Shown: positions 1-45,691, counted from the stretch's first letter. The stretch: 45,691 nt of DNA from a virus (IMGVR_UViG_2531839130_000007:1-45691); one strand, 5' to 3'. Made by a program: numbers and translations. The notes: generated from the letters alone by a model not told the origin.

Positions 1-95
1 AAATATTTGTTCACATCCTACACAAACAAGAGCGTTTCGTTGCAGGTCTGTATTCTGGTTCATTTTGTTGATACCCTTACATAGCCAATCAGCAC
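1..95 (-). pseudogene. 5' portion of a second pin-like invertase copy, partial at window edge, out of frame relative to pin
   Basis: Inverted duplicate of the pin start region (3277..3369); carries a 2-nt insertion (caacaaaatgaacc versus caacaaatgacc). Whether a full gene continues beyond position 1 cannot be seen. Confidence 0.4.
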
Positions 96-149
96 GCTGA
101 ATCTCCCGTTTAAAAGCGCAAATCATGCCATGCAGGCCGGAAACGGCCA

Positions 150-175
150 TTATCTAAAACCTTGGTTTACAGGAA
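150..175. other. gix/pix/hix-family 26-bp crossover site (left)
   Basis: ttatctaaaaccttggtttacaggaa is an imperfect dyad closely resembling the Mu gix site as remembered; an exact inverted copy lies at 3197..3222. Confidence 0.6.
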
Positions 176-1120
176 ACGGTAAATCAGGCTTCTGGCGCAT
201 TACAGAAAAACCAGAACGGCGCAGATATTCCGGGAAAAGATACCTTCACCAAAAATATTGGTGCCTGCCGCGCATATAGCGCATGGCTGAATATTGGTGG
301 CGATAGTCAGACCTGGACAACCGCACAATTCATTTCGTGGCTGGAGAGTCAGGGGGCATTTAACCATCCTTACTGGATGTGCAAAGGCTCATGGGTTTAT
401 GCAAATAATAAGGTCATTACAGATACAGGTTGCGGAAATATTTGTCTTGCAGGTGCTGTGGTGGAAGTTATTGGCACTCGCGGCGCAATGACCATACGCG
501 TTACCACGCCGAGCACGTCCAGTGGTGGCGGAATTACTAACGCTCAATTCACCTATATTAATCATGGTGATATTTATGCTCCTGGCTGGCGACGAGACTA
601 CAACACGAAAAACCAGCAGCCTGCATTTGCTTTAGGGCAAACAGGAGGCAGGGTTGCAAATGATAAAGCTGTTGGCTGGAACTGGAATAGCGGTGTTTAT
701 GATGCAGATCTCAAAGACGCAACAGCATTAATACTCCACTTCAATATGAATACGGGGAGTTGCCCTGCCGTACAGTTCCGCGTGAATTACAGGAACGGCG
801 GTATTTTTTATCGTTCAGCGCGTGATGGTTATGGATTTGAGGCTAACTGGTCAGAGTTTTACACCACGACCCGCAAACCCTCTGCGGGAGATGTTGGTGC
901 ATACACGCAGGCAGAATGTAACTCAAGGTTTATTACAGGTATTCGCCTTGGCGGTCTGTCATCTGTTCAGACATGGAATGGCCCCGGCTGGTCTGACAGG
1001 TCAGGTTATGTCGTTACGGGTTCAGTTAACGGAAACCGTGATGAATTAATTGATACAACTCAGGCAAGGCCAATTCAGTATTGCATTAATGGAACGTGGT
1101 ATAACGCGGGGAGTATTTAA
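158..1120 (+). CDS. Tail-fibre C-terminal variable cassette (Sv-like); no independent start, frame opens inside the left crossover site
   Basis: Frame is open from the TAA at 155-157 to 1120 (first ATG at 377). First 25 codons are encoded by the inverted repeat and shared with the opposite cassette. Ends ...INGTWYNAGSI, the motif shared by the other fibre proteins here. Confidence 0.65.
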   Translation, partial: NLGLQETVNQASGALQKNQNGADIPGKDTFTKNIGACRAYSAWLNIGGDSQTWTTAQFISWLESQGAFNHPYWMCKGSWVYANNKVITDTGCGNICLAGAVVEVIGTRGAMTIRVTTPSTSSGGGITNAQFTYINHGDIYAPGWRRDYNTKNQQPAFALGQTGGRVANDKAVGWNWNSGVYDADLKDATALILHFNMNTGSCPAVQFRVNYRNGGIFYRSARDGYGFEANWSEFYTTTRKPSAGDVGAYTQAECNSRFITGIRLGGLSSVQTWNGPGWSDRSGYVVTGSVNGNRDELIDTTQARPIQYCINGTWYNAGSI

Positions 1121-1122
1121 TT

Positions 1123-1656
1123 ATGATGCACTTAAAAAATATTACTGCTGGCAACCCTAAAACAAAAGAGCAATACCAGCTAACGAAACAATTTAACATC
1201 AAATGGCTTTATACAGAGGATGGGAAAAACTGGTATGAGGAACAAAAGAATTTCCAGCCAGACACTTTGAAAATGGTCTATGACCATAACGGCGTTATTA
1301 TTTGTATTGAAAAGGATGTTTCAGCAATTAATCCGGAAGGCGCAAGCGTCGTTGAATTACCTGATATTACAGCAAATCGCCGTGCTGACATTTCGGGTAA
1401 ATGGATGTTCAAAGATGGCGTAGTGGTAAAGCGAACTTATACCGAGGAAGAGCAGAGGCAGCTGGCGGAAAATGAAAAGCAAAGCCTGCTACAGCTCGTC
1501 AGGGATAAAACCCAGCTATGGGACTCACAGCTACGGCTGGGCATCATTTCCGACGAGAATAAACAAAAATTAACCGAGTGGATGCTCTATGCGCAGAAAG
1601 TCGAATCTACAGACACTTCCGGTCTGCCAGTAACGTTTCCCGAACAACCAGAATGA
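1123..1656 (+). CDS. Tail fibre assembly chaperone (Tfa / Mu U-like)
   Basis: 177 aa; N-terminus [20 protein letters not shown] is paralogous to the ORFs at 1685..2212 and 42015..42563; sits directly after a fibre-tip cassette. Confidence 0.8.
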   Translation: MMHLKNITAGNPKTKEQYQLTKQFNIKWLYTEDGKNWYEEQKNFQPDTLKMVYDHNGVIICIEKDVSAINPEGASVVELPDITANRRADISGKWMFKDGVVVKRTYTEEEQRQLAENEKQSLLQLVRDKTQLWDSQLRLGIISDENKQKLTEWMLYAQKVESTDTSGLPVTFPEQPE

Positions 1657-1684
1657 GAGAAGGCCCGCTATCGGGCCTTAATTT

Positions 1685-2212
1685 TTACTCTGGTTTTTGT
1701 GGCCATTCAGGATTTGCCGTATCCACACGGCTGACCAGAACACTGTAGCGTTCCCATGCTTCCAGTCGTGTGCGTTCCTCGTCTGTTGCCATATTCAGCC
1801 TGACAGCGCGTTCCAGCGGCTGGATGACTGATTCAGCTTCGGAAAGCAATGCGGCCTTTTGTGATTCGGCCTGTTGTTGCTGTTCGTCTGCTGTATAAAT
1901 CCGCTTAACCACAGTTCCGTCCTTAAACATCCACTTCCCTGAATCATCGGCACGACGATTGACTGTTATATCTGGAATCTCAACGACACTAAAGCCTTCG
2001 GGATTAAGCGTTGAGGCATCTTTGGTTATGGCAACAATAATATTATTTTCGTCGTAAACAATCTTTATGGTGTCTTCCTGAAAGTTATTTACTTCCTCAT
2101 ACCAGTTTTTACCGTCTTCTGTATATAACCAGATAACATCAAAATTCTTTGTTAGCTGATATTGCTCTTTTGTTTTTGGATTTCCTGACTTAATATTTTT
2201 TAAATGCTGCAT
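1685..2212 (-). CDS. Tail fibre assembly chaperone, alternative copy (U'-like)
   Basis: 175 aa, [20 protein letters not shown]...; convergent with its paralog inside the invertible segment. Confidence 0.8.
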
Positions 2213-2215
2213 AAT

Positions 2216-3214
2216 TTACACCTGTGCGACGTTATACCATGTGCCATTGATGTATTTTTGTATTGGTCTGAAGATGGCTTCATCATCGCCATCTACTTCA
2301 CCAATGATTCTTAATCCGGTAATTGCGTGTCCGGCTTTTTCATAACGACCACCACGCGCCATCAATTGAACAACACGCGTACCCAGGCGAACATCTTTCA
2401 CATAACGGGAATCAAAGTTACCGTAATCTGAGGGATTAACACGACCTGTAATATTTATGGTTTTATTACTTTGAATACTGCCGGAGACAAAGCGCATAAC
2501 ATGGACGTTATTAGCATAAACATCCAGATACCCGTCGCCATTTTGTTTAAATCCCGTGTCATTATCACCCAAAACAATCGAGTTACCACCAAGAGCACTG
2601 GATGTTCCGATGCCCAGTGCACCATTCAATTGACCGCCAGATAATGACAACGCCCCAACCTCAGCAGCAGTCGGTTTAATGTGCGAACTGTAAATTACAT
2701 ATACAGTTCCATCTGTCAGGCCTGTTGGTTTATTCGCTGTATAAGTTGGTGATGTATGAATCGTTACACTGGCGTTACTGGTATAATCCCACTGAATATT
2801 AACACCTGTGGCGTAATTACCTATTTCTACATAAATGTCATAGGTATCACCTGATGTATTCACCCATGCAAAATTAGTAAATCCAATCGAGGTCCGTCGC
2901 CATAATGCACCAGTAATACCTTTTGGATTCCCATTTCCGGCACGCAGAACCAGCTCAGAGATGCCTGCTTGATGCGAGGAGCCAACGTTATACCCTGCGC
3001 CACCAATCAGGCTTATGTAAACCACGGAACTGGCTTGTGGCATTGTTACAGTTGCCAGTTTGAACCATCCAGCACCACCACTAAAAGACATGGTTGTTGA
3101 ATTTGTTGTGCCGATATTACGCAGGAATAGTTTTTTATCGGGAATATCTGCACCGTTCTGGTTTTTCTGTAATGCACCAGAAGCCTGATTTACCGTTTCC
3201 TGTAAACCAAGGTT
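2216..3214 (-). CDS. Tail-fibre C-terminal variable cassette, alternative copy (Sv'-like)
   Basis: Frame open from the right crossover site (stop at 3215-3217) to 2216 (first ATG at 3091). Contains ALGIG..ALGGNSI.LGDNDTG.KQNGDG.LDVYAN block shared with the fibre gene at 40501..42012; ends ...INGTWYNVAQV. Confidence 0.65.
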   Translation of the reverse strand, partial: NLGLQETVNQASGALQKNQNGADIPDKKLFLRNIGTTNSTTMSFSGGAGWFKLATVTMPQASSVVYISLIGGAGYNVGSSHQAGISELVLRAGNGNPKGITGALWRRTSIGFTNFAWVNTSGDTYDIYVEIGNYATGVNIQWDYTSNASVTIHTSPTYTANKPTGLTDGTVYVIYSSHIKPTAAEVGALSLSGGQLNGALGIGTSSALGGNSIVLGDNDTGFKQNGDGYLDVYANNVHVMRFVSGSIQSNKTINITGRVNPSDYGNFDSRYVKDVRLGTRVVQLMARGGRYEKAGHAITGLRIIGEVDGDDEAIFRPIQKYINGTWYNVAQV

Positions 3215-3369
3215 TTAGATAATGGCCGTTTCCGGCCTGCATGGCATGATTTGCGCTTTTAAACGGGAGATTCAGCGTGCTGATTGGCTATGTAAGGGTA
3301 TCAACAAATGACCAGAATACAGACCTGCAACGAAACGCTCTTGTTTGTGTAGGATGTGAACAAATATTT
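3139..3369. repeat. Right arm of the inverted repeat; contains the right crossover site and the first ~93 nt of pin
   Basis: Same alignment as the left arm; identity is lost left of 3139. Confidence 0.85.
3197..3222. other. gix/pix/hix-family 26-bp crossover site (right)
   Basis: Reverse complement of the left site, 55 bp upstream of the pin start. Confidence 0.6.
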
Positions 3370-3792
3370 GAAGATAAATTAAGCGGGACAAAGACTGACC
3401 GACCGGGATTAAAACGCGCTTTAAAGCGCCTTCAACAAGGTGACACGCTGGTTGTCTGGAAACTGGATCGCCTCGGGCGAAGCATGAAACATCTGATTTC
3501 TCTCGTCGGAGAACTACGGGAGCGAGGGATTAATTTTCGCAGCCTTACTGACAGTATTGATACGTCATCCCCAATGGGGCGTTTTTTCTCCCACGTTATG
3601 GGTGCCCTGGCTGAAATGGAACGAGAACTAATCATCGAGCGAACAATGGCAGGACTTGCTGCCGCCAGAAATAAAGGCCGTATTGGTGGGCGACCACCTA
3701 AACTAACCAAAGCGGAATGGGAGCAGGCCGGGCGTTTATTAGCACAAGGAATCCCCCGCACTCTGAATCACGGGCCATCAGTTATGCACTGA
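3277..3792 (+). CDS. pin: Serine DNA invertase, Pin/Gin/Hin/Cin family; C-terminal DNA-binding helix appears missing
   Basis: [23 protein letters not shown]...[24 protein letters not shown] matches remembered Pin/Gin nearly residue for residue, then diverges ([10 protein letters not shown]-stop) where the recognition-helix region should follow. GTG start. Confidence 0.8.
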
Positions 3793-4136
3793 AAACCATA
3801 AGGTTACTGTATCCGTCAGTGGAGTGGGTTCAGTCCTTTGCAGACGAACGCTGCGGACGTGCAGGCGTTGTGTATCAGGCGTCGAATTTTGATTTTATTG
3901 GCAGTCATGAAAGCACGTTCTACGAGCTGGATGGTGAGTGGTATCACGAGATAACGATGAACGCAATTAAACGCGGTGGACAACGAGGCGTGTATTTACG
4001 GGCTAATAAAGAGCGTGCCGCAGTGCACAAATTTAATCAGTATCGCTGCATCAGATTCCTGAACAAGCGAGCAAGGAAGCGGCTAAATACTAAACTATTC
4101 AGGGCTCAGCCATACCCCAAAAGCAGTTCGGATTAG
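3717..4136 (+). pseudogene. ORF fused downstream of the truncated invertase; possibly the C-terminal remnant of a Mom-like gene
   Basis: Overlaps the pin 3' end in another frame with no convincing start. Mom assignment rests on Mu gene order (G segment, gin, com, mom) and a weak recollection of the family; not verified. Confidence 0.25.
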
Positions 4137-4225
4137 TGTTAGATAAATTCAATGAGCTTATTAACTAGACATGACATTATAGTATGGAAAACTTGATATC
4201 TTTATCCATACACGGAGCATATTAG

Positions 4226-4672
4226 ATGAAAAAAGCAAAATTGCTAATCAGTGCCATCATCGGCTTATTTGTACTAACCGCCCCTTCAGTCAGTCATGCT
4301 CAAGAAAAAGATTTTGATCCTGAAGTTGCAGCTGATGCAATCTTAAGGTCGGCAGGGATAGATCCAGATAAGAATATTGTCAATAAAGCTCCTGCCTCTG
4401 GTTTTTGGGCCTGCCACGGTATTCGTCTGCATATGGGTGTTGATATGGGGTCATGGACTGATCTTGATACTGGTGAACTATACACTCAGACAGAAACAGG
4501 CCAGATTGATGAGCAAGACAAGGATGAAAAGATTAAAGGGACTGATTATCTATATGCTTCAACCAGAAACCCTGCGGTTGTAAAGTATTTTATCGTTGAT
4601 AAATCTGGAAAAAATCTTTATATCCGAGATGATATAAAGTTCTTCAAAACATATAAATGTAAACGAAACTAA
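4226..4672 (+). CDS. Small secreted protein of unknown function (AT-rich cargo gene)
   Basis: 148 aa with typical signal peptide MKKAKLLISAIIGLFVLTAPSVSHA; locus is visibly AT-richer than its flanks, with its own AT-rich upstream region and a downstream hairpin. Confidence 0.6.
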   Translation: MKKAKLLISAIIGLFVLTAPSVSHAQEKDFDPEVAADAILRSAGIDPDKNIVNKAPASGFWACHGIRLHMGVDMGSWTDLDTGELYTQTETGQIDEQDKDEKIKGTDYLYASTRNPAVVKYFIVDKSGKNLYIRDDIKFFKTYKCKRN

Positions 4673-4701
4673 TACTGGTATACCCAAAACTGTCTCAGTT
4701 G

Positions 4702-4751
4702 AAGCGCGAAAGTTTGTATTTTCGTGTTTTGTTTGAAACGCTTTCGCGCTT
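4702..4751. terminator. Candidate bidirectional hairpin between convergent genes
   Basis: aagcgcgaaag (4702-4712) pairs with ctttcgcgctt (4741-4751), followed by a T-run; the loop is long (28 nt), so weak. Confidence 0.3.
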
Positions 4752-4764
4752 TTCATGAGCCGGC

Positions 4765-6222
4765 TCAGTCAACAAATTCACCACGTGATGCAGCAAGCAA
4801 TTTGTCGGCATCGACAGGATTTTTTGATGGATTGTTTTTCCGGGCTTCATGGAGTTCTTCCCGCAGTTCCTGATATTTCGCATCAACAGAATTTACCTGT
4901 GACTGAGCATCCAGCGGCTGCGTGTCCTGATGATGTTCAGTTGCATCCGGTTCCACTGTTTCAGCCGTTGCCTGTTCATTTGCCATTGCGCAAGATGGTT
5001 GCGGTTTTTCTTCATCATCCTGTTTTTCTTCTTCTGCTACACGCTGCGGCATTGGGGCAGAGGAGCGACCGCAGGCAATATCCACGATTTCCGGATCAGG
5101 GTTGGCATGATCGGTTTCAGTCAGCACCCTGCTCAGATATTCGGTGACACGGTGGTGGGTAGCCTCGATACCAATTGGTGCTTCTTTTACGGACGCAACC
5201 ACAATGGCGCGGGAATAATCCAGCCCGCCAGGCATGGTGATGAATTTGTCGCGGAAAACAGAAAAGGGCGGTTTATTTTCAGCGATAATTTCCTCAATGC
5301 GTTTAGCGTGTGCCGGATGAAGGTTATAGATGTCCACGTCCATTGAACGGGCCAGTACGCCAGTGGCTACGTCGCGCGCCAGTGACGTAAGATCGTGGAC
5401 GAAACCTTCGCCGCGATCGGTGAGGTTCCCGCCGCCAGCATTAGCACCGGAAGCCGTGCGAGTGATGCGTGAAACACGATTCCCTTTTCGCCATTCTTTT
5501 GTCAGAAGACCGCGATCAATGTGTTCGGTATCCAGCCAGGCTGAAATGAAATTCTTAAATTCATAGGGCTGATGTTTTTTCGTGATAGAGAAAACTGCCT
5601 TAATTGCATCAGTCAGGCGGAGCAGGGCGGCATTATCCAGAGTTGTTGGCTCTGCCATGCCGCGTATGGCCAACAGCAGATTCTGGACATAGCTGTTTTC
5701 CTGGTCCATCTCAAGAGCAGTAATGTGTTCGCGTTGTTCACGGGTGGCATGATGCAGGTATTTCCGATCCCCGGCCGCATACGTAAAAATGTGCAGAAGA
5801 CGCTGTGTGAACTGCAAAGTGGCTACAGAGACTTCGCAATCCTGGCAATCCCCGTGGGCGTCTGCCTGCGCGTTTTCTTCCTGGCCTACCGCCAGTTCTT
5901 TGGTTTCCTGAGCATTATCCTGGTGGTGAACGTCGTCTGGCGCTGCTCCCGGTTTTAGTTCCCAGGTCATGGAGTCTTTGCTGAGTTGATAGCGTTCACT
6001 CCAGGTAAAATCGATCTCACCTTCAGGGGGCAGGTCATTAACGACAGGAAAATTAGTTGCAATAGCTTTAAAATAGTTGCTCAGTTTTTTACCTGACTTA
6101 ACGATCAGGTAGTCCAGAGTGGCACAGGTTGATTCAAAATCGTCGCTTGCCCACAGGACGACGTCAGGCTCACCGGATGATTTTTTCGCTTTCCGTAAAA
6201 GGAAGAGTGGTTTTGTGCTCAT
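4765..6222 (-). CDS. recE: RecE (exonuclease VIII) N-terminal region only; nuclease domain absent
   Basis: N-terminus [46 protein letters not shown] and later blocks ([30 protein letters not shown], ...[11 protein letters not shown]) match remembered Rac RecE; ORF stops where full-length RecE continues. Gene order fits Rac. Confidence 0.6.
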
Positions 6223-13775: not shown

Positions 13776-13931
13776 ATGAAGCAGCAAAAGGCGATGTTAA
13801 TCGCCCTTATCGTCATCTGTTTAACCGTCATAGTGACGGCACTGGTAACGAGGAAAGACCTCTGCGAGGTACGAATCCGAACCGGCCAGACGGAGGTCGC
13901 TGTCTTCACAGCTTACGAACCTGAGGAGTAA
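13776..13931 (+). CDS. hokD: Hok/Gef-family type I toxin (HokD/RelF-like)
   Basis: MKQQKAMLIALIVICLTVIVTALVTRKDLCEVRIRTGQTEVAVFTAYEPEE: single TM helix plus conserved Cys and RTG...VAAF-like tail; AGGAGAAG Shine-Dalgarno; structured leader and terminator. Confidence 0.85.
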   Translation: MKQQKAMLIALIVICLTVIVTALVTRKDLCEVRIRTGQTEVAVFTAYEPEE

Positions 13932-15873: not shown

Positions 15874-15968
15874 AAAAGTTATTGCATTTTTGCCAATAAA
15901 CTGCTTCAATTTTGCTACGCTTCGCAAAGCTGTATCGCGAGGCGAATCAAGCGCATGAACTTTACCAG

Positions 15969-15997
15969 AACCCGCCATTGAGCGGGTTTTGTTGTTT
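15969..15997. terminator. Intrinsic terminator downstream of the Q-position gene
   Basis: Stem cccgc/gcggg with loop cattga, then ttttgttgttt. Confidence 0.55.
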
Positions 15998-16129
15998 CTA
16001 TGGTGTGATATAAGAAACGACATTTAATAATTGCCTTCAAAATAAATTTGTTTATATATTGTTGTGTATGTTTTAAGTGAAAGTTAAATGTTTGCATAAA
16101 ATAAAAACACATAAATAAATTTACATAAC

Positions 16130-16165
16130 TTGACGTAAAGTGTTGTTGCGATTGGAATATTAAAT
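16130..16165 (+). promoter_or_regulatory. Candidate late promoter (PR'-like) in AT-rich region
   Basis: TTGACG at 16130-16135 followed by AT-rich -10-like hexamers (gaatat/taaat) at plausible spacing; assignment is weak. Confidence 0.25.
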
Positions 16166-16243
16166 CGTATCATCGAAAACGGTTCTGAGGGGGGGGGAGG
16201 AACTCTTCTTTGCTCGGTGATATCGCTCCCCTGAAGAACCAAT

Positions 16244-16319
<76 letters not shown>

Positions 16320-16322
16320 TAT

Positions 16323-16397
<75 letters not shown>

Positions 16398-16763
16398 GCA
16401 TTTGAAACAAGCCTTATTGTATTGCGGCACTGGCGTATTTTTTATTACGTGGGGGCAGGTTGTTTTGAAAAAGCATTCTGTTCTCTGGCTATGATTTGAG
16501 GCCAGGTGTAGCCTCAGTGCTGATTTTTTTACGACAGCAGAATGGTGCATTATCGGTGGAGATTTTGTATTTCCTGGCAGGGTAGGTGATGCATCATTCT
16601 GGTGTTGTAAATCGCACCAAAGAGGCGCACCTCAGTGCGAGGGTGGTTTAAAGAGTCGGTTTAGCGGGAAACCACAGTATCCATACAGCACGGAATACTT
16701 CGGGAGACACCCGACGCCTCGGTTTAATAACAATTAAAAAAAATCATCCCTTGCATTGACCAA

Positions 16764-16788
16764 CCGCCATATCTGGCGGTTTTTTTTA
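16764..16788. terminator. Intrinsic terminator in the tRNA-to-lysis intergenic region
   Basis: Stem ccgcca/tggcgg with loop tatc, then T8. Confidence 0.6.
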
Positions 16789-17114
16789 TTCCTTTCTCAG
16801 GACGAAAAAAGACACGAGCATCCAGGAATACTCGTGGGACAACGTCCTTTGGATAGCAATTTGCGAGAGGGTGAAAAGTAGCGCGGTCGTCGGATTAAGA
16901 CCGCGGGACAAAGTCCATGAAGAATAATAAGTATTGGCCCCCTTCCGGGGACATGTTCATACTACCAAGATTCAGAAGTGGTTTAAATCCTCAAATTAAC
17001 CTTAATTTCCGATAAGTCTTATTTCATTTCTTTGCGCCACATCTGGAGCTCATCAAATAACGCCACGCAAAGGGCGTCTGCGGATGCCGGTGCTTTTGAC
17101 GGGGTGTTTTTTAC

Positions 17115-17137
17115 GGGCCGCTGGTGGCCCTTTTTTT
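17115..17137. terminator. Intrinsic terminator immediately upstream of the lysis cassette
   Basis: Stem gggcc/ggccc with loop gctggt, then T7; 20 nt before the holin-like start. Confidence 0.6.
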
Positions 17138-17156
17138 ATTTACAGGAGAAAAAAGT

Positions 17157-17549
17157 ATGTCTGAACCCTTATCCGGTTCCGGCACGGCTGCGGCGCTCGG
17201 CGGGGCGACGGTGTACGGGCTGTTTACCGGGACGGATTTCGGGATTGTGTTTGGTGCGTTCGCCGGGGCGTTATTTGTGGCAACGATGCCGCAGGCGCTT
17301 TCAGCCTGGCGTGTGGCGGCGCATTTTCTGGTGTCGTTCATTATCGGCGTGCTGGGGGCAGAGGTTCTGGCGTCCTGGCTGGTAAAGCATACAGGGTTTG
17401 ACGGTGCACCTGTCGACGCACTGTGTGCAGTGCTGGTGTCAGTGGTGTCGGTGAAGATTCTGTCGTTCATCCACCAGCAGGATATTGCATCACTGGTGTC
17501 CGGTGTGTTCTCCCGCCTGCGGGGCGGAGGAGGCGGCAATGTTAAGTAA
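17157..17549 (+). CDS. Putative holin (multi-pass small membrane protein)
   Basis: Start at ATG 17157 (AGGAGAAAAAAGT upstream); ~130 aa with 3-4 hydrophobic helices; first gene of the lysis cassette. Confidence 0.45.
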   Translation: MSEPLSGSGTAAALGGATVYGLFTGTDFGIVFGAFAGALFVATMPQALSAWRVAAHFLVSFIIGVLGAEVLASWLVKHTGFDGAPVDALCAVLVSVVSVKILSFIHQQDIASLVSGVFSRLRGGGGGNVK

Positions 17550-17814
17550 CCTTCCCGGATTGCTGAATGTGGCGTTATGCACGGTTATCGTGCTGACGCT
17601 CTTTTTTTATCGTCGTCGTGACTCCAGACACAAACCGCTGATGTCATGGCTGGCCTGGCTGCTGATGCTGCTGTATGCCTTTACGCCCCTCAGCTATCTG
17701 TGTGGTCGCCCGTTAGCGGCGAACTGGCTGGCGGTGGGGCTTAATCTGCTGTTCTGCGTGCTGGTGATACGTGCACGCGGGAACGTTTCAAAAATCCTTT
17801 CATTCCGGAGGTGA
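17539..17814 (+). CDS. Second small membrane protein of the lysis cassette (antiholin or accessory)
   Basis: Start at ATG 17539 (GGAGG upstream), overlapping the holin stop; 91 aa with two hydrophobic segments. Confidence 0.4.
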   Translation: MLSNLPGLLNVALCTVIVLTLFFYRRRDSRHKPLMSWLAWLLMLLYAFTPLSYLCGRPLAANWLAVGLNLLFCVLVIRARGNVSKILSFRR

Positions 17815-17816
17815 GC

Positions 17817-18194
17817 ATGTCGGGTAAATTCAGATTCAGTCGTCGCAGTGAAAAAAATCTGGGGGGCGTCAAACCACAGCTGGTTGCTGTCGTTCGCCGT
17901 GCCCTTGAGCTGACGGAGGTTGATTTCGGTATTACGGAAGGCCTGCGCAGCAAGTATCGCCAGAAACAGCTGGTTGCAGAAGGTAAGAGCCAGACCATGA
18001 ACAGCCGCCACCTGACCGGTGATGCGGTGGATGTTGTGGCCTACGTTGGCAGCCAGGTGTCATGGGACTGGCCTCTGTACGAGAAAATCGCACAGGCATT
18101 TAAGCAGGCTGCCGCAGAGCTGGGAGTCGCCATCGAATGGGGCGGGGACTGGAAAACGCTGAAGGACGGGCCGCACTTCCAATTGAAACGCTGA
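17817..18194 (+). CDS. Endolysin, peptidase M15 family (zinc L-alanyl-D-glutamate peptidase type)
   Basis: Motifs SRHLTGDAVD, WGGDW and DGPHFQL fit the M15 H-x6-D...H zinc site; ATG 17817 with GGAGG upstream. Confidence 0.7.
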   Translation: MSGKFRFSRRSEKNLGGVKPQLVAVVRRALELTEVDFGITEGLRSKYRQKQLVAEGKSQTMNSRHLTGDAVDVVAYVGSQVSWDWPLYEKIAQAFKQAAAELGVAIEWGGDWKTLKDGPHFQLKR

Positions 18195-18208
18195 TAGCCG
18201 GGTGAGTT

Positions 18209-18391
18209 ATGAGTCGAAAGCACTGGACACACAGAACGCCGCGAACTGCGGCGAAATGGGCACTGGTAGCGATACTGGTGCCTTTTTTATTGGTGGGATG
18301 CGTCAGCCTGGATAAGGCGCGCCAGCTTTTCGATACGGCTTCTCAGGTCTGTGAAATTGTCGACGGTGTTCGGCAGTGCCTGCAGAACTGA
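18209..18391 (+). CDS. Small lipoprotein (outer-membrane spanin-like lysis component?)
   Basis: 60 aa with lipobox-like FLLVGC after a hydrophobic stretch; directly follows the endolysin. Confidence 0.4.
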   Translation: MSRKHWTHRTPRTAAKWALVAILVPFLLVGCVSLDKARQLFDTASQVCEIVDGVRQCLQN

Positions 18392-18517
18392 TCTCCTGTA
18401 AGGGCAGAATATTTCGCTGAAAAATGAAAGGGCGCCATTGTCCAAGAGGCATGAAATTCTGTTATCTAATCTGGTTGATATATGAATGTGGGGGATGCTC
18501 TTCTCCCCCACTGAAGG

Positions 18518-18730
18518 TTAGCCTACCTTACGGTATGGATACACATTTTTAATGAATTGGTGAAAATACTGGCCTTTTGAACTGGCATTCATAAGACCCT
18601 GATAGATCCTGGATGGAACACCAGAGTATTGATAGATACCTCCATTGTGAAAGGCTATTTCCAGTGTGAGAGTTGCTGAATCATACCCAACTGACTGGAG
18701 ATTTGATGATGAAACATAATTACGAATCAA
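18518..18730 (-). CDS. KTSC-domain protein
   Basis: 70 aa with pattern SSNLQSVGYD...LEIAFHNGGIYQYSGVP..YQGL..ASSKGQYF..IK typical of KTSC domains; TTG start with GAGGA upstream. Confidence 0.5.
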   Translation of the reverse strand: MIRNYVSSSNLQSVGYDSATLTLEIAFHNGGIYQYSGVPSRIYQGLMNASSKGQYFHQFIKNVYPYRKVG

Positions 18731-18885
18731 AACAATATCCTCATATTGCGGGGAAAAGTCCCAATGAAATTATTGATATATTTCGGCGTTATAACTTTGT
18801 CGATGATCATGGTCATCGTCTTGAAATGTGCCAGGACTTCATTGACTTAGTTAATGCGAAATCACAACAACATCAGGATGGTTAG
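18706..18885 (+). CDS. Small hypothetical protein, divergent from and overlapping the KTSC gene start
   Basis: 59 aa from ATG 18706 (GGAG upstream); head-to-head overlap of 25 bp with the KTSC start, so one of the two starts may be wrong. Confidence 0.35.
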   Translation: MMKHNYESKQYPHIAGKSPNEIIDIFRRYNFVDDHGHRLEMCQDFIDLVNAKSQQHQDG

Positions 18886-19151
18886 GCATTACAGCAGCTC
18901 TTCTGTGAGGGGCTGCGATAATGCCAAAGCTCGTCATCGGCACCCGCCGCGCACCCAGCGCACTGGCCGATAGCGGGCTTTTTTATTCATAAAGCGAGGC
19001 TGTATGAGCGAGAAATTTTTATGCGTCCATCCGTAAGGGCAGAGCGAAAGGTGAAGCCGAGCTACGGGCGGCATTGTTTAAGCTTGCCAGAAAAGGGGAT
19101 GCCTTTGCCCTGCGCGAACTACTCAGGGTGGATAAAAATCAGGACTAACTG

Positions 19152-37614: not shown

Positions 37615-38088
37615 TCATATCTTTTTGCCCTCAAGATGGCACTGGTAAGACGTTCCGCCGTGTTCATAAATCGCCCAATCAATAGCTTCTCCAGAAATCC
37701 GATTAATAGTTACGTGAGATTGAGGAATCCAATTAACTTTATCCCTAGATGCCTCGACAGTATATTCTATACGTAGGTCATTAATTGTTGGGCGATTGAC
37801 TCTAAACCAAGTATCATCACGGCCTAATGATTCGTTGTTTTGCATTATAATTACTGATTCAGTAAACCACGTTGTTTTTTTACCATCGGCAACACATGCA
37901 TTTCCAGAGTCAATTCTAATATTAAAGCATAATTTATCATTTAAAAGGTAAGGTTGGGGCCAGATTGCGGAGGTTGCGGTGTCGTTGCTATTAGATGGCT
38001 TACATATTATTCTTGATATGTTAGATGAGTGTGAAGAAAAACTCACAAAAAGAAGTAGGGATAAAAATTTCAATTTCATAAATATCAC
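37615..38088 (-). CDS. Secreted protein of unknown function (AT-rich cargo gene)
   Basis: 157 aa with N-terminal signal-like segment (M)KLKFLSLLLFVSFSSHS, several Cys; local sequence clearly AT-richer than the tail genes. Confidence 0.55.
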   Translation of the reverse strand: MIFMKLKFLSLLLFVSFSSHSSNISRIICKPSNSNDTATSAIWPQPYLLNDKLCFNIRIDSGNACVADGKKTTWFTESVIIMQNNESLGRDDTWFRVNRPTINDLRIEYTVEASRDKVNWIPQSHVTINRISGEAIDWAIYEHGGTSYQCHLEGKKI

Positions 38089-38097
38089 CGCCTGATT

Positions 38098-38646
38098 TTA
38101 CATGTTTTCTTTACAGGAATTGATTGCAGCTTTATATGCTTCCGGGAGGCCATCTAATGGGAAGAATAGTTTTTGTGGTTTTTCTTTGCTTTCAGCTGGC
38201 GGAGTGTACCAAAAAGAAAAACTACCTTTCCCTTTAGCTTTTAACAAATCACTAATCTTTAATGAGCTAATAGGACTGAACAAGTAACCCTCATTGATAG
38301 ATGGGGTTGTTATAGAGTCCTGCTTTTGTTGTCCGCTGATTTTATAACTTACAGGAAGGAACGGTGGTAAATCCATTTGTTTATATCCAATAAAATGATT
38401 GATAGTTACATCACCGGGCTCACATTGAGTTAATGGTGATATATCAATAAATAAAGTTGATTTATCCTGTGGCAATTTGGATTCAACACCAATACGATAA
38501 GCCATAGTGGTAGGCATGGTAAATTCAGCATAATACCATTTACCGAACTGTTGAATGTCATTCATTCTCTCTGTGGCATCAATTGCATGAGAAACACCAG
38601 AAAATAGCAGTGAGCTAATCAAAATCCCTAATGAGTTAAATTTCAT
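38098..38646 (-). CDS. Secreted protein of unknown function (AT-rich cargo gene)
   Basis: 182 aa with signal peptide MKFNSLGILISSLLFSGVSHA; AGAGGA 4 nt before the ATG; 10 bp upstream of the next gene in the same orientation. Confidence 0.55.
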   Translation of the reverse strand: MKFNSLGILISSLLFSGVSHAIDATERMNDIQQFGKWYYAEFTMPTTMAYRIGVESKLPQDKSTLFIDISPLTQCEPGDVTINHFIGYKQMDLPPFLPVSYKISGQQKQDSITTPSINEGYLFSPISSLKISDLLKAKGKGSFSFWYTPPAESKEKPQKLFFPLDGLPEAYKAAINSCKENM

Positions 38647-39894: not shown

Positions 39895-40504
39895 GAAAAT
39901 TCTCCCTGCTTATCCATTTGTGCAGTACAGAGATGATCCGAATGTTGTTGCGTTCTTTGATGCATACAATGAAATTGCTCAGGAATACCTCGATTCACTC
40001 AACAATCTGGCATTGCCATGCTGGACATCGGAATCAATAACCGGGCAATTGCTGGACTGGATTGCACTCGGGATTTATGGCGTTGAAAGGCCTTTACTAC
40101 AGGTTTCCGAGGAGGCTATTGCACGAGGCGCATACGATACCATTGAATACAATACGATCCCGTATGCAGCAATGCGGAATTATGTTCCGGGGCAGGCATC
40201 GTATGTACCTGATGATTATTTCAAACGAATATTAACGTGGAATTTTTATAAGGCTGACGGTTCGCATTTCTGCATTGACTGGTTAAAGCGACGTGTGGCG
40301 CGGTTCATTCATGGAAAAAACGGAATAGACCCGCCGTTGCAGCACACTTTTGATGTGAGTGTGACAGTATCGGACAGCGTTTTTTCTATTCAGATACCAG
40401 AGTATGGCGATGGTATAGGCTATTTTCTGAAAGATGCCATTGACCAGAAATATGTAAAATTCCCTTTTATTTATTCCTATGCAACAACGGTGATTCAAAA
40501 ATGA
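39878..40504 (+). CDS. Baseplate / tail protein (I-like)
   Basis: Start at ATG 39878 overlapping the upstream stop; MQYLTEKILPAYPFVQYRDD...; 208 aa. Confidence 0.45.
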   Translation: MQYLTEKILPAYPFVQYRDDPNVVAFFDAYNEIAQEYLDSLNNLALPCWTSESITGQLLDWIALGIYGVERPLLQVSEEAIARGAYDTIEYNTIPYAAMRNYVPGQASYVPDDYFKRILTWNFYKADGSHFCIDWLKRRVARFIHGKNGIDPPLQHTFDVSVTVSDSVFSIQIPEYGDGIGYFLKDAIDQKYVKFPFIYSYATTVIQK

Positions 40505-42012
40505 TTCTTGGATTTGGCAATAACGTTGTTTCAGCACTGGCTGGTGATATCACCACGATTCAGACTGATATTCCGGTAATGCCCGGTACAGGGGCTAAAT
40601 TTGCAAAATTGCTTTCTGCCGATTTTGAAAATAAATCGAACGGGCAACGTGTCTATGCAAAAATTACGCTTACCGATAATAAAGAGTCTGCATTTGAGAT
40701 TTGTCACCTGGTATCGGTAAGCGGTGATGTGTTGAAAGTCATTCGTGGGCAGGAAGGAACAACAGCGAAAGGTTGGTCCCTTAATGACGTTGTGGCTAAC
40801 TTTGCCACGCGTGGTTCGGAAAACCATTTCGTACAGATAGCGCAGCTTCAGAGTGGTCATTATATTGCGGGAGTTGCTGGCGGCACTGCAAACGCGCTGA
40901 CTCTGGAGCTTCCCGCGACGTTTTTTGTTAATGGAGGTACAGACTGGACGCTACGAGCCCCGATTATCGTTTTCCCCGTTCAGAACAATACCAATGCCGC
41001 GACACTTCAATTAACACTGGGCGGAAAGGTTCTTGGTACGTTCCCGCTTTATAAGGGGAACAAGTCCGGGCTGGTAGCGAACGATATCATTAAAGGCATT
41101 CCCTTAATTTGTCTTCTTGATAGCGAGAAAAGCTATTTCAGCGTGATAAACCCTGGCAATATCTATTCAGATTTTGATCTGCGATATGTAAAAAAATCTG
41201 GTGATTTGATGACCGGAGAACTAAAAATCCGTGGTTTTAATGCGCTGAGGATTTTCAACGAAGCCTTTGGTCTGATTTTTCGTCGTTCGGAAGAGTGCCT
41301 GCACCTTATCCCTACCAGTGAAGGTCAGGGCGAGAATGGCGATATTGGTCCACTTCGACCGTTCACTATTAATCTGCGGACGGGTGAAATATACATGTCG
41401 CATAAAGTGTATGTTGGCGGCGGTTCTCAGGTCAATGGTGCGCTGGGTATCGGCGTTCAGAACGCGCTGGGCGGAAACTCAATTGCTTTCGGGGATAACG
41501 ATACAGGTATAAAACAAAACGGCGACGGCATTCTGGATGTTTATGCGAATGGACAGCATGTATTTCGTTTCCAGAATGGTGTGGCGATAGCGTTAAAAAA
41601 TATTCAGGCCGGAAATGCTAAAAAATTCACGTTATACAGCTCCAACAACTCCACGAAAAACGCAACGTTTAATTTATGGGGTAATTCATCCCGACCTGTA
41701 GTTGCAGAGCTTGATGATGATTCCGGCTGGCATTTTTACAGCCAGAGAAATACCGATGGCAGTATCACATTCGCTGTAAATGGACAGATGATCCCATCAA
41801 ACTATGGAAATTTCGATGCCCGTTATCAGCAGCGAAATGGCGGCGTGCAGGATGTGCGTCTGGGAGGTGCCATTGGTATTGGACGCGGAGGAAATGCGCC
41901 ATCAGGTCATTTACTGAGTGGTGTTGATGGCGGTCAAAGTGTGGACTGGGCCAATGCACGCCCGGTGCAGGTTCTGATTAATGGTGTCTGGCGAAATGTA
42001 GCGAGTTTGTAA
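40501..42012 (+). CDS. Tail fibre protein
   Basis: 503 aa; C-terminal third shares the ALGIG..ALGGNSIAFGDNDTGIKQNGDGILDVYANGQHVFRF block with the Sv' cassette and ends ...INGVWRNVASL; followed by a chaperone gene. Confidence 0.7.
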   Translation: MILGFGNNVVSALAGDITTIQTDIPVMPGTGAKFAKLLSADFENKSNGQRVYAKITLTDNKESAFEICHLVSVSGDVLKVIRGQEGTTAKGWSLNDVVANFATRGSENHFVQIAQLQSGHYIAGVAGGTANALTLELPATFFVNGGTDWTLRAPIIVFPVQNNTNAATLQLTLGGKVLGTFPLYKGNKSGLVANDIIKGIPLICLLDSEKSYFSVINPGNIYSDFDLRYVKKSGDLMTGELKIRGFNALRIFNEAFGLIFRRSEECLHLIPTSEGQGENGDIGPLRPFTINLRTGEIYMSHKVYVGGGSQVNGALGIGVQNALGGNSIAFGDNDTGIKQNGDGILDVYANGQHVFRFQNGVAIALKNIQAGNAKKFTLYSSNNSTKNATFNLWGNSSRPVVAELDDDSGWHFYSQRNTDGSITFAVNGQMIPSNYGNFDARYQQRNGGVQDVRLGGAIGIGRGGNAPSGHLLSGVDGGQSVDWANARPVQVLINGVWRNVASL

Positions 42013-42563: not shown

Positions 42564-42587
42564 TTTAATTTATCGCGAGAAAAACTA

Positions 42588-45500
42588 TGTCTGTAGTGAT
42601 ATCAGGTGCGCTGATTGATGGCGCAGGCATCCCCATGTCCGGATGCCACATAATTCTGAAATCCCGGGTAAACACCTCAGAGGTGGTGATGCGCACAGTT
42701 TCCGACGTGGTGACAGGAAACTGTGGCGAGTACTGTTTTAAAGCGCAGACCGGAAAATATTGCGTATATCTGAAACAGGACTGGCGCGACGAGTACTGTG
42801 TTGGCGACATTGCTGTATACGACGACTCAAAGCCCGGTACGCTGAACGACTTTCTGACTGCCCTTGATGAAGGTGATTTAAAGCCGGATGTAGTGAAACG
42901 CTTTGAGGAAATGGTGGCGCAGGCGCAGCAGAGCGCGGAAGCGGCAGCGGAGAGCGAACGACAGGCCGGGAAACATGTCGCTGATGCGCAACAAATTAAG
43001 AGCGCCTGCCAGACACTGGCGGATAACGTACAGCAGAATGCAGAATCCGTTGCCGAAGATAAAAATCAGGTGGCATTACTGGCGTCATCTGCCACACAGG
43101 ATGCGGCCCGCGCAGATCAGGCTGTTAAAGACGCAGACAAAATCGTCGATAAGGCTGTTGATAAACTCGATGAAGCCGCAACGCTGACCGGCGAGGCAAA
43201 AGCCAGCGCCGAAGCGGCAGCAAAAAGCGAGCAGAGCGCGAAACAGCACAAGGACGAGGCGCAACGGATAGTTGATGACCTGAAGGGAAGCAATGCTTCC
43301 ACAACAGAAAAAGGCCTGGTGCAACTCTGTAGTGATACAGACAACGACAGCGAGGAACTGGCAGCCACGCCAAAAGCCGTCAAAACCGTCATGGACGAGA
43401 CGAAAACAAAAGCGCCACTGGACAGCCCGGCGTTTACCGGCACGCCCACCACACCAACCCCGCCGGACGATGCGACCGGGCTGGAGATGGCGAACGCGGC
43501 ATTTGTCCGCAAACTGCTTGCCGCGCTGGTTGACTCATCACCGGAAGCCCTGGACACGCTGAACGAGCTGGCAGCGGCGCTGGGAAATGACCCGGAGTTC
43601 GCGACAACAATCATGAACGCGCTGGCGGGTAAACAACCACTAAGCGACGTGTTAACCGCAATCAGTAATCTGGAAGAACGGGCAGATAATCTTCTGTGCT
43701 TTAATCAGGACGGGAATGCTTCGCTGTCTCCACTGTCAGAAAAAGCCCGGTCACTGCTGGCGCAGGCCACAGTGGAAGCCATGCGCAATGAGCTTGAGCT
43801 GAAAAGCGCAGCGGTAAAGGATATCCAGACAGACCTTTACGACAGCACGGAAGGCCGTGTTGCGCTGCCAGGTGCATTTGGTTACGGAATGACGGACGCC
43901 GGAGCGCGTTCAATTATTGCCAGCGATATGGCGACTGTAGCCAGAACCGCTCACAACCTGCACCCGGGACGCTATTACACCTTTGCCACACGAACGGAAG
44001 AAATAACCGGGATAACAGAAATTATCTGGCTGGATAATGGCGGGGGCGACAAAACCAGCCAGACAGCAACAAAGCTGGTTCTGTTTTTTGGAAAAGACGG
44101 ACGGATTCTTATGACCGTTCGTGGCGATAATATCTCCGCCCCGGTCACCTGGACGAATCTGACACCACAACTTGGCAATGCAGCACAGAAGGATGCGCAG
44201 GAGAATATTTACGACCGCACCGAAGGCCGTCTGGCGATTCCCGGCATGTTTGGATTCGGGAAAGTATTTTTCATCGGCGACAGGACCGAGTTTAAAACAG
44301 AGGCCGATTTTCTCCGCTGGGTAAAAACGGCAAATCCCGGACGCTATGCCGTTTATGCAGATACAAATGCGGTAATACAGGGCGTGCTGTTCAAGGGTAC
44401 CGTTGAAATTATCTGGCCGGAACCTCAAATCAGCCATGATACGGCATATGTGGCCAAAATCATTATTTTTTACGGTATTAACGGTCATATTTATTACAAT
44501 CGCTACTGGACTACCGGAGGTGGTTATCTGGTTGGCTGGGAAAACCTGAAAGTCAACGAGGCTTCACTCCGGGCACTGATTGAAACCCGAGCGCCACTGA
44601 ACAGTCCGGCACTGACCGGAACGCCGTCCACGCCAACACCACCGGATGATGCAGCAGGTAATGAAATAGCCAATGCGGCGTTTGTCCGCAAACTGCTCGC
44701 CACGCTGGTTGGCTCATCACCGGAAGCCCTGGACACGCTGAACGAGCTGGCAGCGGCACTGGGCAATGACCCGAACTTTGCGACAACCGTCACTAATGCA
44801 CTGGCAGGTAAACAGCCGCTTAACGATACGTTAACCAGTATCAGCAAGGCAGGGGTGGGACAAAACTCTCTCCTTTATTTTGGTGATAACTTTAAAGCAA
44901 AAGCAATTCCATGCAGCAACAAGGCTCGCTCATTACTGGCACGAAACACGCCTGAATCCATGCGCGCGGAGCTTGAACTGAAAGCGGCTGCGACGATGGA
45001 ACCCCAGACCGATATCCGTGACCGCACACCCGGCAGGCTGGCGCTACCGGGCGCTTTTGGCTTTGGTAAGGCATTCAGTAACACAGAAGCCCTGACATTT
45101 AACGGGCAGGCTGATTTTGCTGAATGGCTGAAGGAAGCCATGCCGGGGCGTTATGCGGTCAGTATTGCGGACTCTTCCACGCTGCTGGCTGGCACAACGA
45201 AATTTAACGGCATCATTGATGTGATGTGGTCACCCTTTGATAACGACGAGTCAGACACAGTGCGTAAATTCAAAACGCTGCTGTGTTTTAACCAGTATTA
45301 CGAAGGTGAGCACAGTATTCATCGCCTGACTTACCGCTGGAGTGGAAACAACTGGAATGCAACAGTAAGCCCCATTATTTACGACGGCGATTCGCTGGCC
45401 TTCCTGCTGTCCAGGACGGCGGGCTCAGGCTCATATTTCAAATACCCGGCAGTGGGTGTTCCTGTGCTGGCTGTTTATCGCGGAACAACTTCCGGGGATA

Positions 45501-45691
45501 AAGAAATCAATATTGGCCTGGGTGATGTGGTGCAGGGGTCACAACTGGGCGGAGTTAATCTTTCGTGCGCAATATCTTCTGCTGGGGTTGGCTCCTACAA
45601 TTCCGCACCGAGTGTAGGAGCTACAGGGTACACTTTCCCGGGGCGTTATATGGCGCTATCCGGGGTCAGGGACTCTAAAGGAATAACCGGT
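42588..45691 (+). CDS. Long side tail fibre protein (Stf-like), 3' end beyond the window
   Basis: Frame read by hand is open from ATG 42588 to the window end (over 1030 codons; absent from the ORF track because no stop). Contains repeated PxFTGTPTTPTPPDDA...FVRKLL...LNELAAALGNDP modules typical of lambdoid side tail fibres. Confidence 0.75.
43412..43670 (+). repeat. Intragenic direct repeat, copy 1, within the side tail fibre gene
   Basis: About 260 bp, ~85% identical to 44591..44847 with a ~45-bp perfect core (catcaccggaagccctggacacgctgaacgagctggcagcggc). Confidence 0.8.
44591..44847 (+). repeat. Intragenic direct repeat, copy 2, within the side tail fibre gene
   Basis: Matches 43412..43670; copies are 1179 bp apart (a multiple of 3). 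Confidence 0.8.

Follow-up and report, generated by a model that had tools for sequence, protein, structure and literature searches.

A Mu-type invertible tail-fibre segment beside a truncated invertase gene that probably still flips and looks orphaned through the end of a draft contig

The viral sequence IMGVR_UViG_2531839130_000007 (45,691 bp, analysed as a whole and called the window below) carries at positions 150–3792 a tail-fibre inversion switch, in which two opposed fibre tips lie between inverted crossover sites next to a serine DNA invertase gene. The original prediction, made from the same DNA, had described this switch as frozen and orphaned. We consider a different explanation quite probable. 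The switch would be the G segment of a Mu-like prophage in which a deletion has removed the 3' end of the invertase gene gin; the constant part of the fibre gene (Sc) would lie off the contig, its apparent loss being an assembly artefact; and the segment would still be flipped by an invertase acting in trans. The window was identified, by exact-protein look-up of the neighbouring truncated RecE, as the entire draft contig AQER01000007.1 (GCA_000356665.2), and its base 1 is the contig end.

As predicted, the parts of a Mu G-type switch are complete, comprising two gix sites, two opposed cassettes and an adjoining invertase gene (Table 1). The 26-bp site TTATCTAAAACCTTGGTTTACAGGAA is present in exactly two copies in the 45.7-kb window, at 150–175 on the plus strand and 3197–3222 on the minus strand, where none is expected by chance. 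The two sites are in inverted orientation and have a matching central dinucleotide (TT/AA; the gix core is at 162–163), and each is one or two positions off the gixL and gixR sites of Mu (gixL of Mu, for comparison, is TTATCCAAAACCTCGGTTTACAGGAA). Between them, the cassettes of SvA with its chaperone U on the plus strand and of SvB with its chaperone U' on the minus strand are convergent, and the two chaperones are identical to each other at 102 of 177 positions. The hairpin that separates the two chaperone genes is likely to serve as a bidirectional terminator.

The truncated 171-aa invertase (Gin') is found in identical form on at least 32 contigs, and ten of these loci (L003–L012) were inspected. 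In these loci, Gin' sits at the right end of a Mu-like prophage with the gene order gp45, gp46, gp47, gp48, S, U, U', S', gin' and a 148-aa open reading frame (ORF); late genes corresponding to Mu gp36–gp48, including gp45/46/47/48, are located within 10 kb upstream. The host genes that follow the element differ in all ten loci (flhDC, asnS, thi genes, tal/tkt, a P2-like prophage and others). Five loci (L004, L006, L007, L009 and L012), referred to as state A, are colinear with window 150–4767 at 99.98% identity over 4618 bp, the sole difference being T155 in the window versus C in the relatives. The other five (L003, L005, L008, L010 and L011), referred to as state B, match window 1–3222 in reverse complement, four of the five at 99.9%. 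Nine of the ten loci are identical to one another, with 0 mismatches in the flanks compared (Sc side, 4173 bp; gin side, 1398 bp).

Because the deletion in gin is shared, yet otherwise identical copies occur 5:5 in both orientations, the switch appears to have flipped since the deletion and not to be frozen. The markers that distinguish the two arms of the repeat locate the exchange. The outer marker, at position 155, never leaves its flank, and the inner ones, at 196 and 220, invert with the segment in every case; this places the exchange between 155 and 196, where the gix core is located. This pattern agrees with what site-specific inversion would predict. RecA-dependent homologous recombination across the 82-bp inverted repeats, with no site-specific invertase involved, would find a substrate here as well, since the arms contain 40 bp of perfect identity (156–195) within 82 bp at 96%, and the markers merely bound the exchange to 155–196. 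However, recombination over 40–82 bp is rare, while a 5:5 split implies frequent switching, and all ten exchanges fall within the gix-core interval, with none past 196 or 220, which makes the RecA-dependent scenario very improbable.

The contig itself also carries traces of both orientations. A repeat search of the window returned inverted-repeat arms at 64–238 and 3134–3308 (175 nt, 97%) and at 1–59 and 3311–3369 (59 nt, 100%), and the inverted repeat extends past the crossover site to base 1, taking in the reverse complement of the initial 94 nt of the invertase gene. The crossover site had been noted before, but the continuation of the repeat to base 1 had been overlooked. In the alignment, bases 1–149 are the reverse complement of 3223–3370, save that homopolymer runs at about 60–63 contain two additional T, and they are identical to the gin-side junction of the state-B relatives; the left flank of the segment is thus a second, inverted copy of its right flank. 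The left junction of the window equals the state-B gin-side junction base for base, the right junction equals the state-A gin-side junction, and window 1–3222 as a whole is the reverse complement of state-B relatives at 99.9%. The contig thus holds two gin-side junctions and zero Sc junctions. One molecule has a single gin flank, and therefore the contig must merge both orientations of the segment, or else two copies that differ in state. The assembler would have left the end of SvA through the inverted repeat into the gin flank, and not into Sc. The two extra T at 60–63 are confined to the copy of the gin 5' region at the contig end, where they would frameshift gin if real, and are present in none of the ten relatives; the simplest explanation is that low coverage at this end led to sequencing or consensus errors.

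Alternatively, the contig might be literally correct, its G segment being enclosed by two gin' flanks in inverted orientation. Such an arrangement could result, for instance, from a deletion between the gix sites of two inverted Mu-like copies, which would give an Sc-less element with two right ends. Such a structure matches the deposited sequence, and an assembler would also stop shortly into a long true inverted repeat. However, it occurs in none of the ten related loci, and its left arm equals the right arm save for the two homopolymer insertions, which resemble contig-end errors. Fis- and enhancer-dependent invertases strongly disfavour deletion, whereas mixed orientation is the known behaviour of G segments. 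A genuine pair of gin flanks is accordingly a distinctly improbable reading of the contig.

A contig merged from the two orientations would also account for the stop codons and for the missing constant region. When extended upstream, the tip frames hit TAA at 155–157 (plus strand) and 3217–3215 (minus strand), as read directly from the sequence. The original prediction was right that both frames contain TAA, but not in taking it as a sign of an orphaned switch: the codon belongs to the gin-side outer half-site, and the relatives have CAA on the Sc side. In these relatives, the Sc-side site is TTATCCAAAACC (CAA, Gln; reading frame ...FIQNLGLQE...) and the gin-side site is TTATCTAAAACC; the 5' end sequence of Mu S is ...AATAAGCCGCTGTTTATCCAAAACC. 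The TAA of the window would thus be a harmless gin-side half-site that never stands within an expressed gene. Indeed, in all ten inspected loci an Sc of 168 codons precedes the segment and reads in frame through CAA; this Sc is 97.6% identical to residues 1–168 of Mu S. Joined to SvA, it gives an S protein of 168 + 320 = 488 aa (state A), and joined to SvB one of 168 + 332 = 500 aa (state B).

Within the window, the 3' end of the relatives' Sc has no match anywhere, and a tblastn search with Sc returned short motif-level similarities only. The statement that the switch lacks a fibre constant region therefore holds for the contig, which has no Sc copy, but is not supported as a feature of the switch, since the contig ends there and ten of ten relatives have Sc; Sc most plausibly exists but off the contig. 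One candidate for the missing constant region was considered and rejected, namely the long fibre ORF at 42587–45691, which could have been brought to the opposite end by circular permutation; it encodes the side fibre of the Rac-type prophage and matches Rac-SA53 tail3 at 87% identity as far as 45066, and the Sc of the relatives corresponds to the N-terminus of Mu S.

The reading of a frozen, orphaned switch that stores tips related to the resident fibre gene at 40501–42012 drew on the absence of Sc from the contig, on a Gin' without most of its helix-turn-helix (HTH) domain and on the TAA in both tip frames. It does not agree with a base 1 that is the contig end and bases 1–149 that are the reversed gin flank, nor with relatives that share the identical Gin', have identical flanks and Sc in frame via CAA, and occur in both orientations. 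Moreover, the gene at 40501 is part of another prophage. We regard this reading as extremely improbable, the least credible of those weighed here. Reads showing both orientations in a population had been named in advance as the observation that would speak against freezing, and this is nearly what was found: both states are present among the relatives and in the contig, on the basis of the contig and not of read counts.

The truncation of the invertase, in contrast, was described correctly: its sequence diverges after AQGIPR and stops ten codons later with loss of the recognition-helix region, although the gene is gin rather than pin, as it had been named. Gin' aligns with Mu Gin (PDB 3UJ3, 193 aa) over residues 1–161 at about 96% identity (E=5.5e-101), and the genes are 96.1% identical over 486 nt. 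The Resolvase domain is complete (PF00239, residues 3–135, E=1.8e-49) with Ser9 in the motif YVRVSTNDQ, whereas the HTH_7 match is limited to positions 1–25 of 45. Thus, Gin' retains the catalytic domain, the E-helix, the GGRPPK arm and helix 1 of the DNA-binding domain (DBD), and a complete C-terminal helix-turn-helix DBD is not present. The gene is a truncated member of its family, but as a DNA element the switch is not affected.

The cause of the truncation is seen by comparison with the intact relative in E. coli N1286, in which an invertase of 205 aa is followed by com, mom (245 aa), orfX (148 aa) and a disrupted host gene. The window aligns to N1286 in two blocks, 3182–3760 and 3751–4762, with about 662 bp skipped between them. 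The missing DNA took the last 32 residues of gin (162 onward), the whole of com and the first ~40% of mom; the com-mom module that is expected after gin is thereby reduced to a partial mom. The element is a deletion derivative of a Mu-like prophage, and the deletion was a single event, because its junction is common to the carriers. A 32-mer spanning the junction has no match in IMG/VR viral contigs or GTDB species representatives, and the contiguous junction was found in none of 5,426 complete E. coli genomes and in no phage record. So far, the deletion lineage is known from draft assemblies alone.

In the Gin/Pin/Hin family, site recognition is provided by the C-terminal DBD, and in Mu the enhancer lies within the 5' part of the invertase gene. 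In the mechanism that we propose, which is that of Mu, a serine invertase dimer would bind each gix, and the two sites would form a synapse with the enhancer, which lies in the 5' portion of gin and is bound by Fis. Strand exchange at the central TT/AA dinucleotide would then join Sc either to SvA, giving the 488-aa fibre with its 177-aa chaperone, or to SvB, giving the 500-aa fibre with its 175-aa chaperone. Gin' itself would be unable to bind gix, and most likely another host-resident invertase of the Gin/Pin/Cin family inverts the segment in trans, via the intact gix sites and enhancer. Precedents for action in trans include the Pin invertase of e14, which inverts the Mu G segment and complements Mu gin, Fin of Fels-2, which inverts the Salmonella H segment, and PinQ of Qin, which inverts the e14 P segment (PMC12529663).

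The main competing view of the invertase is that Gin' is self-sufficient, its catalytic core, minor-groove arm (GGRPPK) and DBD helix 1 working together with Fis and the enhancer in the absence of DBD helices 2–3. The 5:5 split of orientation among sequence-identical copies argues for frequent inversion, the retained DBD helix 1 is the region that contacts Fis in Hin (PMC3798978), and the ORF has suffered no further damage on at least 32 contigs. However, HTH_7 positions 26–45, which include the recognition-helix region, are absent from a protein whose family has its DBD at the C-terminus (PMC3575834). That the ORF has not decayed further tells nothing, since copies so nearly identical are very young. 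If true, an active Gin' would explain equal orientation frequencies in a young, actively transposing Mu-like lineage; its probability is low, although it is the least improbable of the alternatives. A milder version, in which the lineage is wholly dependent on the invertases of other resident prophages for its host-range switch, is more likely than an active Gin' and forms part of the explanation preferred here. A self-sufficient Gin', RecA-dependent exchange and a real double-gin structure are each less likely than inversion in trans of a segment whose Sc lies off the contig.

Several points nevertheless weigh against this preferred explanation. A mixed orientation in the sequenced culture is deduced from the structure of the contig and not from reads, and the perfect 40-bp repeat (156–195) could mislead a small-k assembler without any flipped read. 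The orientation of each assembly among the relatives may likewise be one assembler's choice from a mixed culture, which would still imply flipping. The Fis-dependent enhancer is presumed to be present from the 96% identity of the 5' 486 nt to Mu gin. Finally, no second invertase gene was found in this contig, and among the ten relatives one was seen in L006 alone, as a 196-aa PinR-like gene ~6 kb away.

Together with the genes downstream of it, the switch appears to form the right end of a Mu-like (Muvirus) transposable prophage, window 150–4767, which comprises the G segment, gin, a mom remnant, orfX and attR. The attR aligns with the right ends of Mu and Mu_3F6, and homology among the related prophages stops at ~4767–4772. 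The window and its ten relatives all end with ...GGCTCA and then run into eleven different sequences. In the window, homology to recE of Rac-SA53 starts at 4769, which corresponds to position 5610 of KU052037. The Mu-like element thus appears to have transposed into recE of a Rac-SA53-like prophage, which accounts for the remainder of the contig. The other parts of a Mu genome, such as transposase genes A/B, the left end and the 5-bp target duplication, would lie off this contig. The two prophages are nested, with attR (4673–4767) abutting codon 485 of recE (4765–6222, minus strand), and the 3' part of recE, recT, int and attL of the Rac-type prophage must be on other contigs, separated from this part of recE by ~37 kb of Mu-like DNA. 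Two more records, APYJ01000141.1 and a Logan contig of SRR446929, contain the same recE insertion. The gene orfX is kept between mom and attR in Mu_3F6, N1286 and several E. coli Mu-like prophages but is absent from Mu, and it is possibly a moron.

Table 1. Features of the switch and its surroundings (window positions)
Feature	Position	Strand	Description
Contig-end copy of the gin flank	1..149	-	gin' codons 1-31 (bases 1-95) and gin upstream region (96-149), reverse complement
Left arm of the 82-bp inverted repeat	150..231		Pairs with 3141-3222, 96% identical; inner part encodes the common start of both tips (NLGLQETVNQASGALQKNQNGADIP)
Left gix-type site	150..175	+	TTATCTAAAACC-TT-GGTTTACAGGAA; outer half carries T155, the gin-flank marker that creates TAA
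Fibre tip SvA	158..1120	+	Open from the crossover site, 320 codons; ATG-ORF 377-1120; weak gp37_C match
U-type tail-fibre assembly chaperone for SvA	1123..1656	+	177 aa; PF02413 Caudo_TAP, E=9.9e-36
GC-rich hairpin between convergent chaperone genes	1660..1679		AAGGCCCG-ctat-CGGGCCTT, read directly from the sequence
U'-type tail-fibre assembly chaperone for SvB	1685..2212	-	175 aa; PF02413, E=1.5e-36
Fibre tip SvB	2216..3214	-	Open from the crossover site, 332 codons; ATG-ORF 2216-3091
Right (gin-proximal) gix site	3197..3222	-	TTCCTGTAAACC-AA-GGTTTTAGATAA on the plus strand
gin', Mu-type serine DNA invertase	3277..3792	+	171 aa, truncated; retains Ser9; has 10 unrelated residues in place of Gin 162-193
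Deletion junction	3751..3760	+	Lacks ~662 bp that intact N1286 has, from the gin 3' end through com into the 5' end of mom; short microhomology (CCCCGCA) where the ends meet
'mom remnant	3761..4136	+	Matches Pfam Mom over 73-202 (of 202 positions); frame differs from that of gin'; nominal ORF 3717-4136 begins inside gin'
orfX	4226..4672	+	148 aa; signal-peptide-like N-terminus (MKKAKLLISAIIGLFVLTAPSVSHA/QE); no Pfam match
Mu-type attR	4673..4767	+	Conserved terminal repeats as in Mu; ends ...GGCTCA
recE' of the Rac-type prophage	4765..6222	-	Cut after codon 485 by the Mu-like insertion; target gene, outside the switch

Two further observations concern the spread and the state of the Mu-like copies. 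The element is found at at least 11 chromosomal sites, and no substitution separates nine of the ten copies within the ~5.6 kb that were compared. This suggests that transposition is active and very recent even though Mom has been lost. In L005, a 538-aa sheath-family product (1005–2621) occupies the place where the other loci have the end of the tape-measure gene and a DNA_circ_N gene, suggesting an internal deletion in the tail module of that Mu-like prophage.

The closest known system is the G segment of Mu with its Gin invertase (NC_000929, S-U-U'-S'-gin-com-mom), which has the same gene order. Besides the Sc of the relatives, the gin sequence over residues 1–161 and the Mu-type attR, the likeness extends to the gix sites and to an inverted repeat that in Mu likewise reaches into the tips. 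The element differs from Mu in that gin lacks codons 162–193, com is absent and mom is without its first ~40%; in addition, there is an extra 148-aa gene before attR, the core of the crossover site is TT/AA here and TC/GA in Mu, and the tip sequences differ. The nearest sequenced relatives are Mu_3F6 (LR595867), SfMu (NC_027382) and the prophage of E. coli N1286, which are ~92% identical across the switch. Mu_3F6 and N1286 have the order gin-com-mom-orfX-attR, and SfMu has gin-com-mom under the match. Unlike the element described here, all three have com, a mom gene that is complete and an invertase of full length (the N1286 protein has 205 aa), and none has the deletion junction.

Among more distant invertible segments, the C segment of P7 shares the tip and chaperone DNA of window ~197–2425 at 94% identity. 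P1 and P7 differ from the present element in being phage-plasmids with cin and cix and no Mu ends, and the likeness would reflect the usual shuffling of tip cassettes among invertible segments, with the cargo alone shared. The P segment of e14 offers a parallel for the mechanism proposed here, being flipped by PinE and in trans by PinQ; in e14, however, the cognate invertase is intact, whereas here it is truncated, and action in trans would be the only route.

Both tips had been called homologous to the fibre gene at 40501–42012. This is true of one of them and marginal for the other: the SvB tip (the 291-aa ORF) shares its C-terminal half with that gene (38% identity over 205 aligned positions, E=2e-27), while for the SvA tip the similarity covers the last 39 aa only (E=2e-5). 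The idea that the segment stores tips for this gene did not hold, as the gene belongs to the Rac-SA53-like prophage. The likeness would represent ordinary modular exchange among the fibre genes of different phages, and not storage.

The remaining part of the window provides several observations on the Rac-type prophage. The side-tail-fibre ORF at 42587–45691 (plus strand) is open over 1035 codons and runs off the contig end; a block of ~85 aa (APLDSPAFTGTP...AGKQPL) is duplicated within it, around residues 275 and 665, and its last ~625 nt no longer match Rac-SA53 tail3. Rac-SA53 bears LT-IIa and the pertussis-like toxin genes eplBA around its lysis genes, where the cargo of the window (~15900–19150) is different; tblastn searches of the window with the LT-IIa/LT-II and EplBA proteins of Rac-SA53 returned no match. 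At 37615–38646 (minus strand), two ORFs of 157 and 182 aa with signal-peptide-like starts lie inside the plus-strand tail and baseplate module, at the place where Rac-SA53 has the minus-strand genes rac61 and rac62. Finally, a hok homologue at 13776–13928 (plus strand), 96% identical to Hok of Rac-SA53, is located in the early region.

In sum, the observation behind the original prediction was correct but mis-explained: the switch is of a known kind and sits in a deletion derivative, and an assembly artefact shaped its appearance. The description of the switch as orphaned does not stand with base 1 at the contig end, a reversed gin flank in bases 1–149 and an Sc in frame in the relatives; nor does its description as frozen, given five state-A and five state-B loci with the same Gin', identical flanks in nine of the ten and a contig that carries both gin-side junctions. 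It should be noted that invertible segments in draft assemblies give contig ends that fold back into the flank of the invertase gene, and that such ends mimic orphaned switches and in-frame stops. The marker in the outer half-site, C when joined to Sc and T when joined to gin, is a simple diagnostic of a fold-back contig end. As for the biology of the element, a Mu-like lineage without a complete gin, com or mom still spreads to new chromosomal sites, and its G segment apparently still flips. The lineage would thus offer a natural test of how far borrowed prophage invertases can run the host-range switching of a phage.

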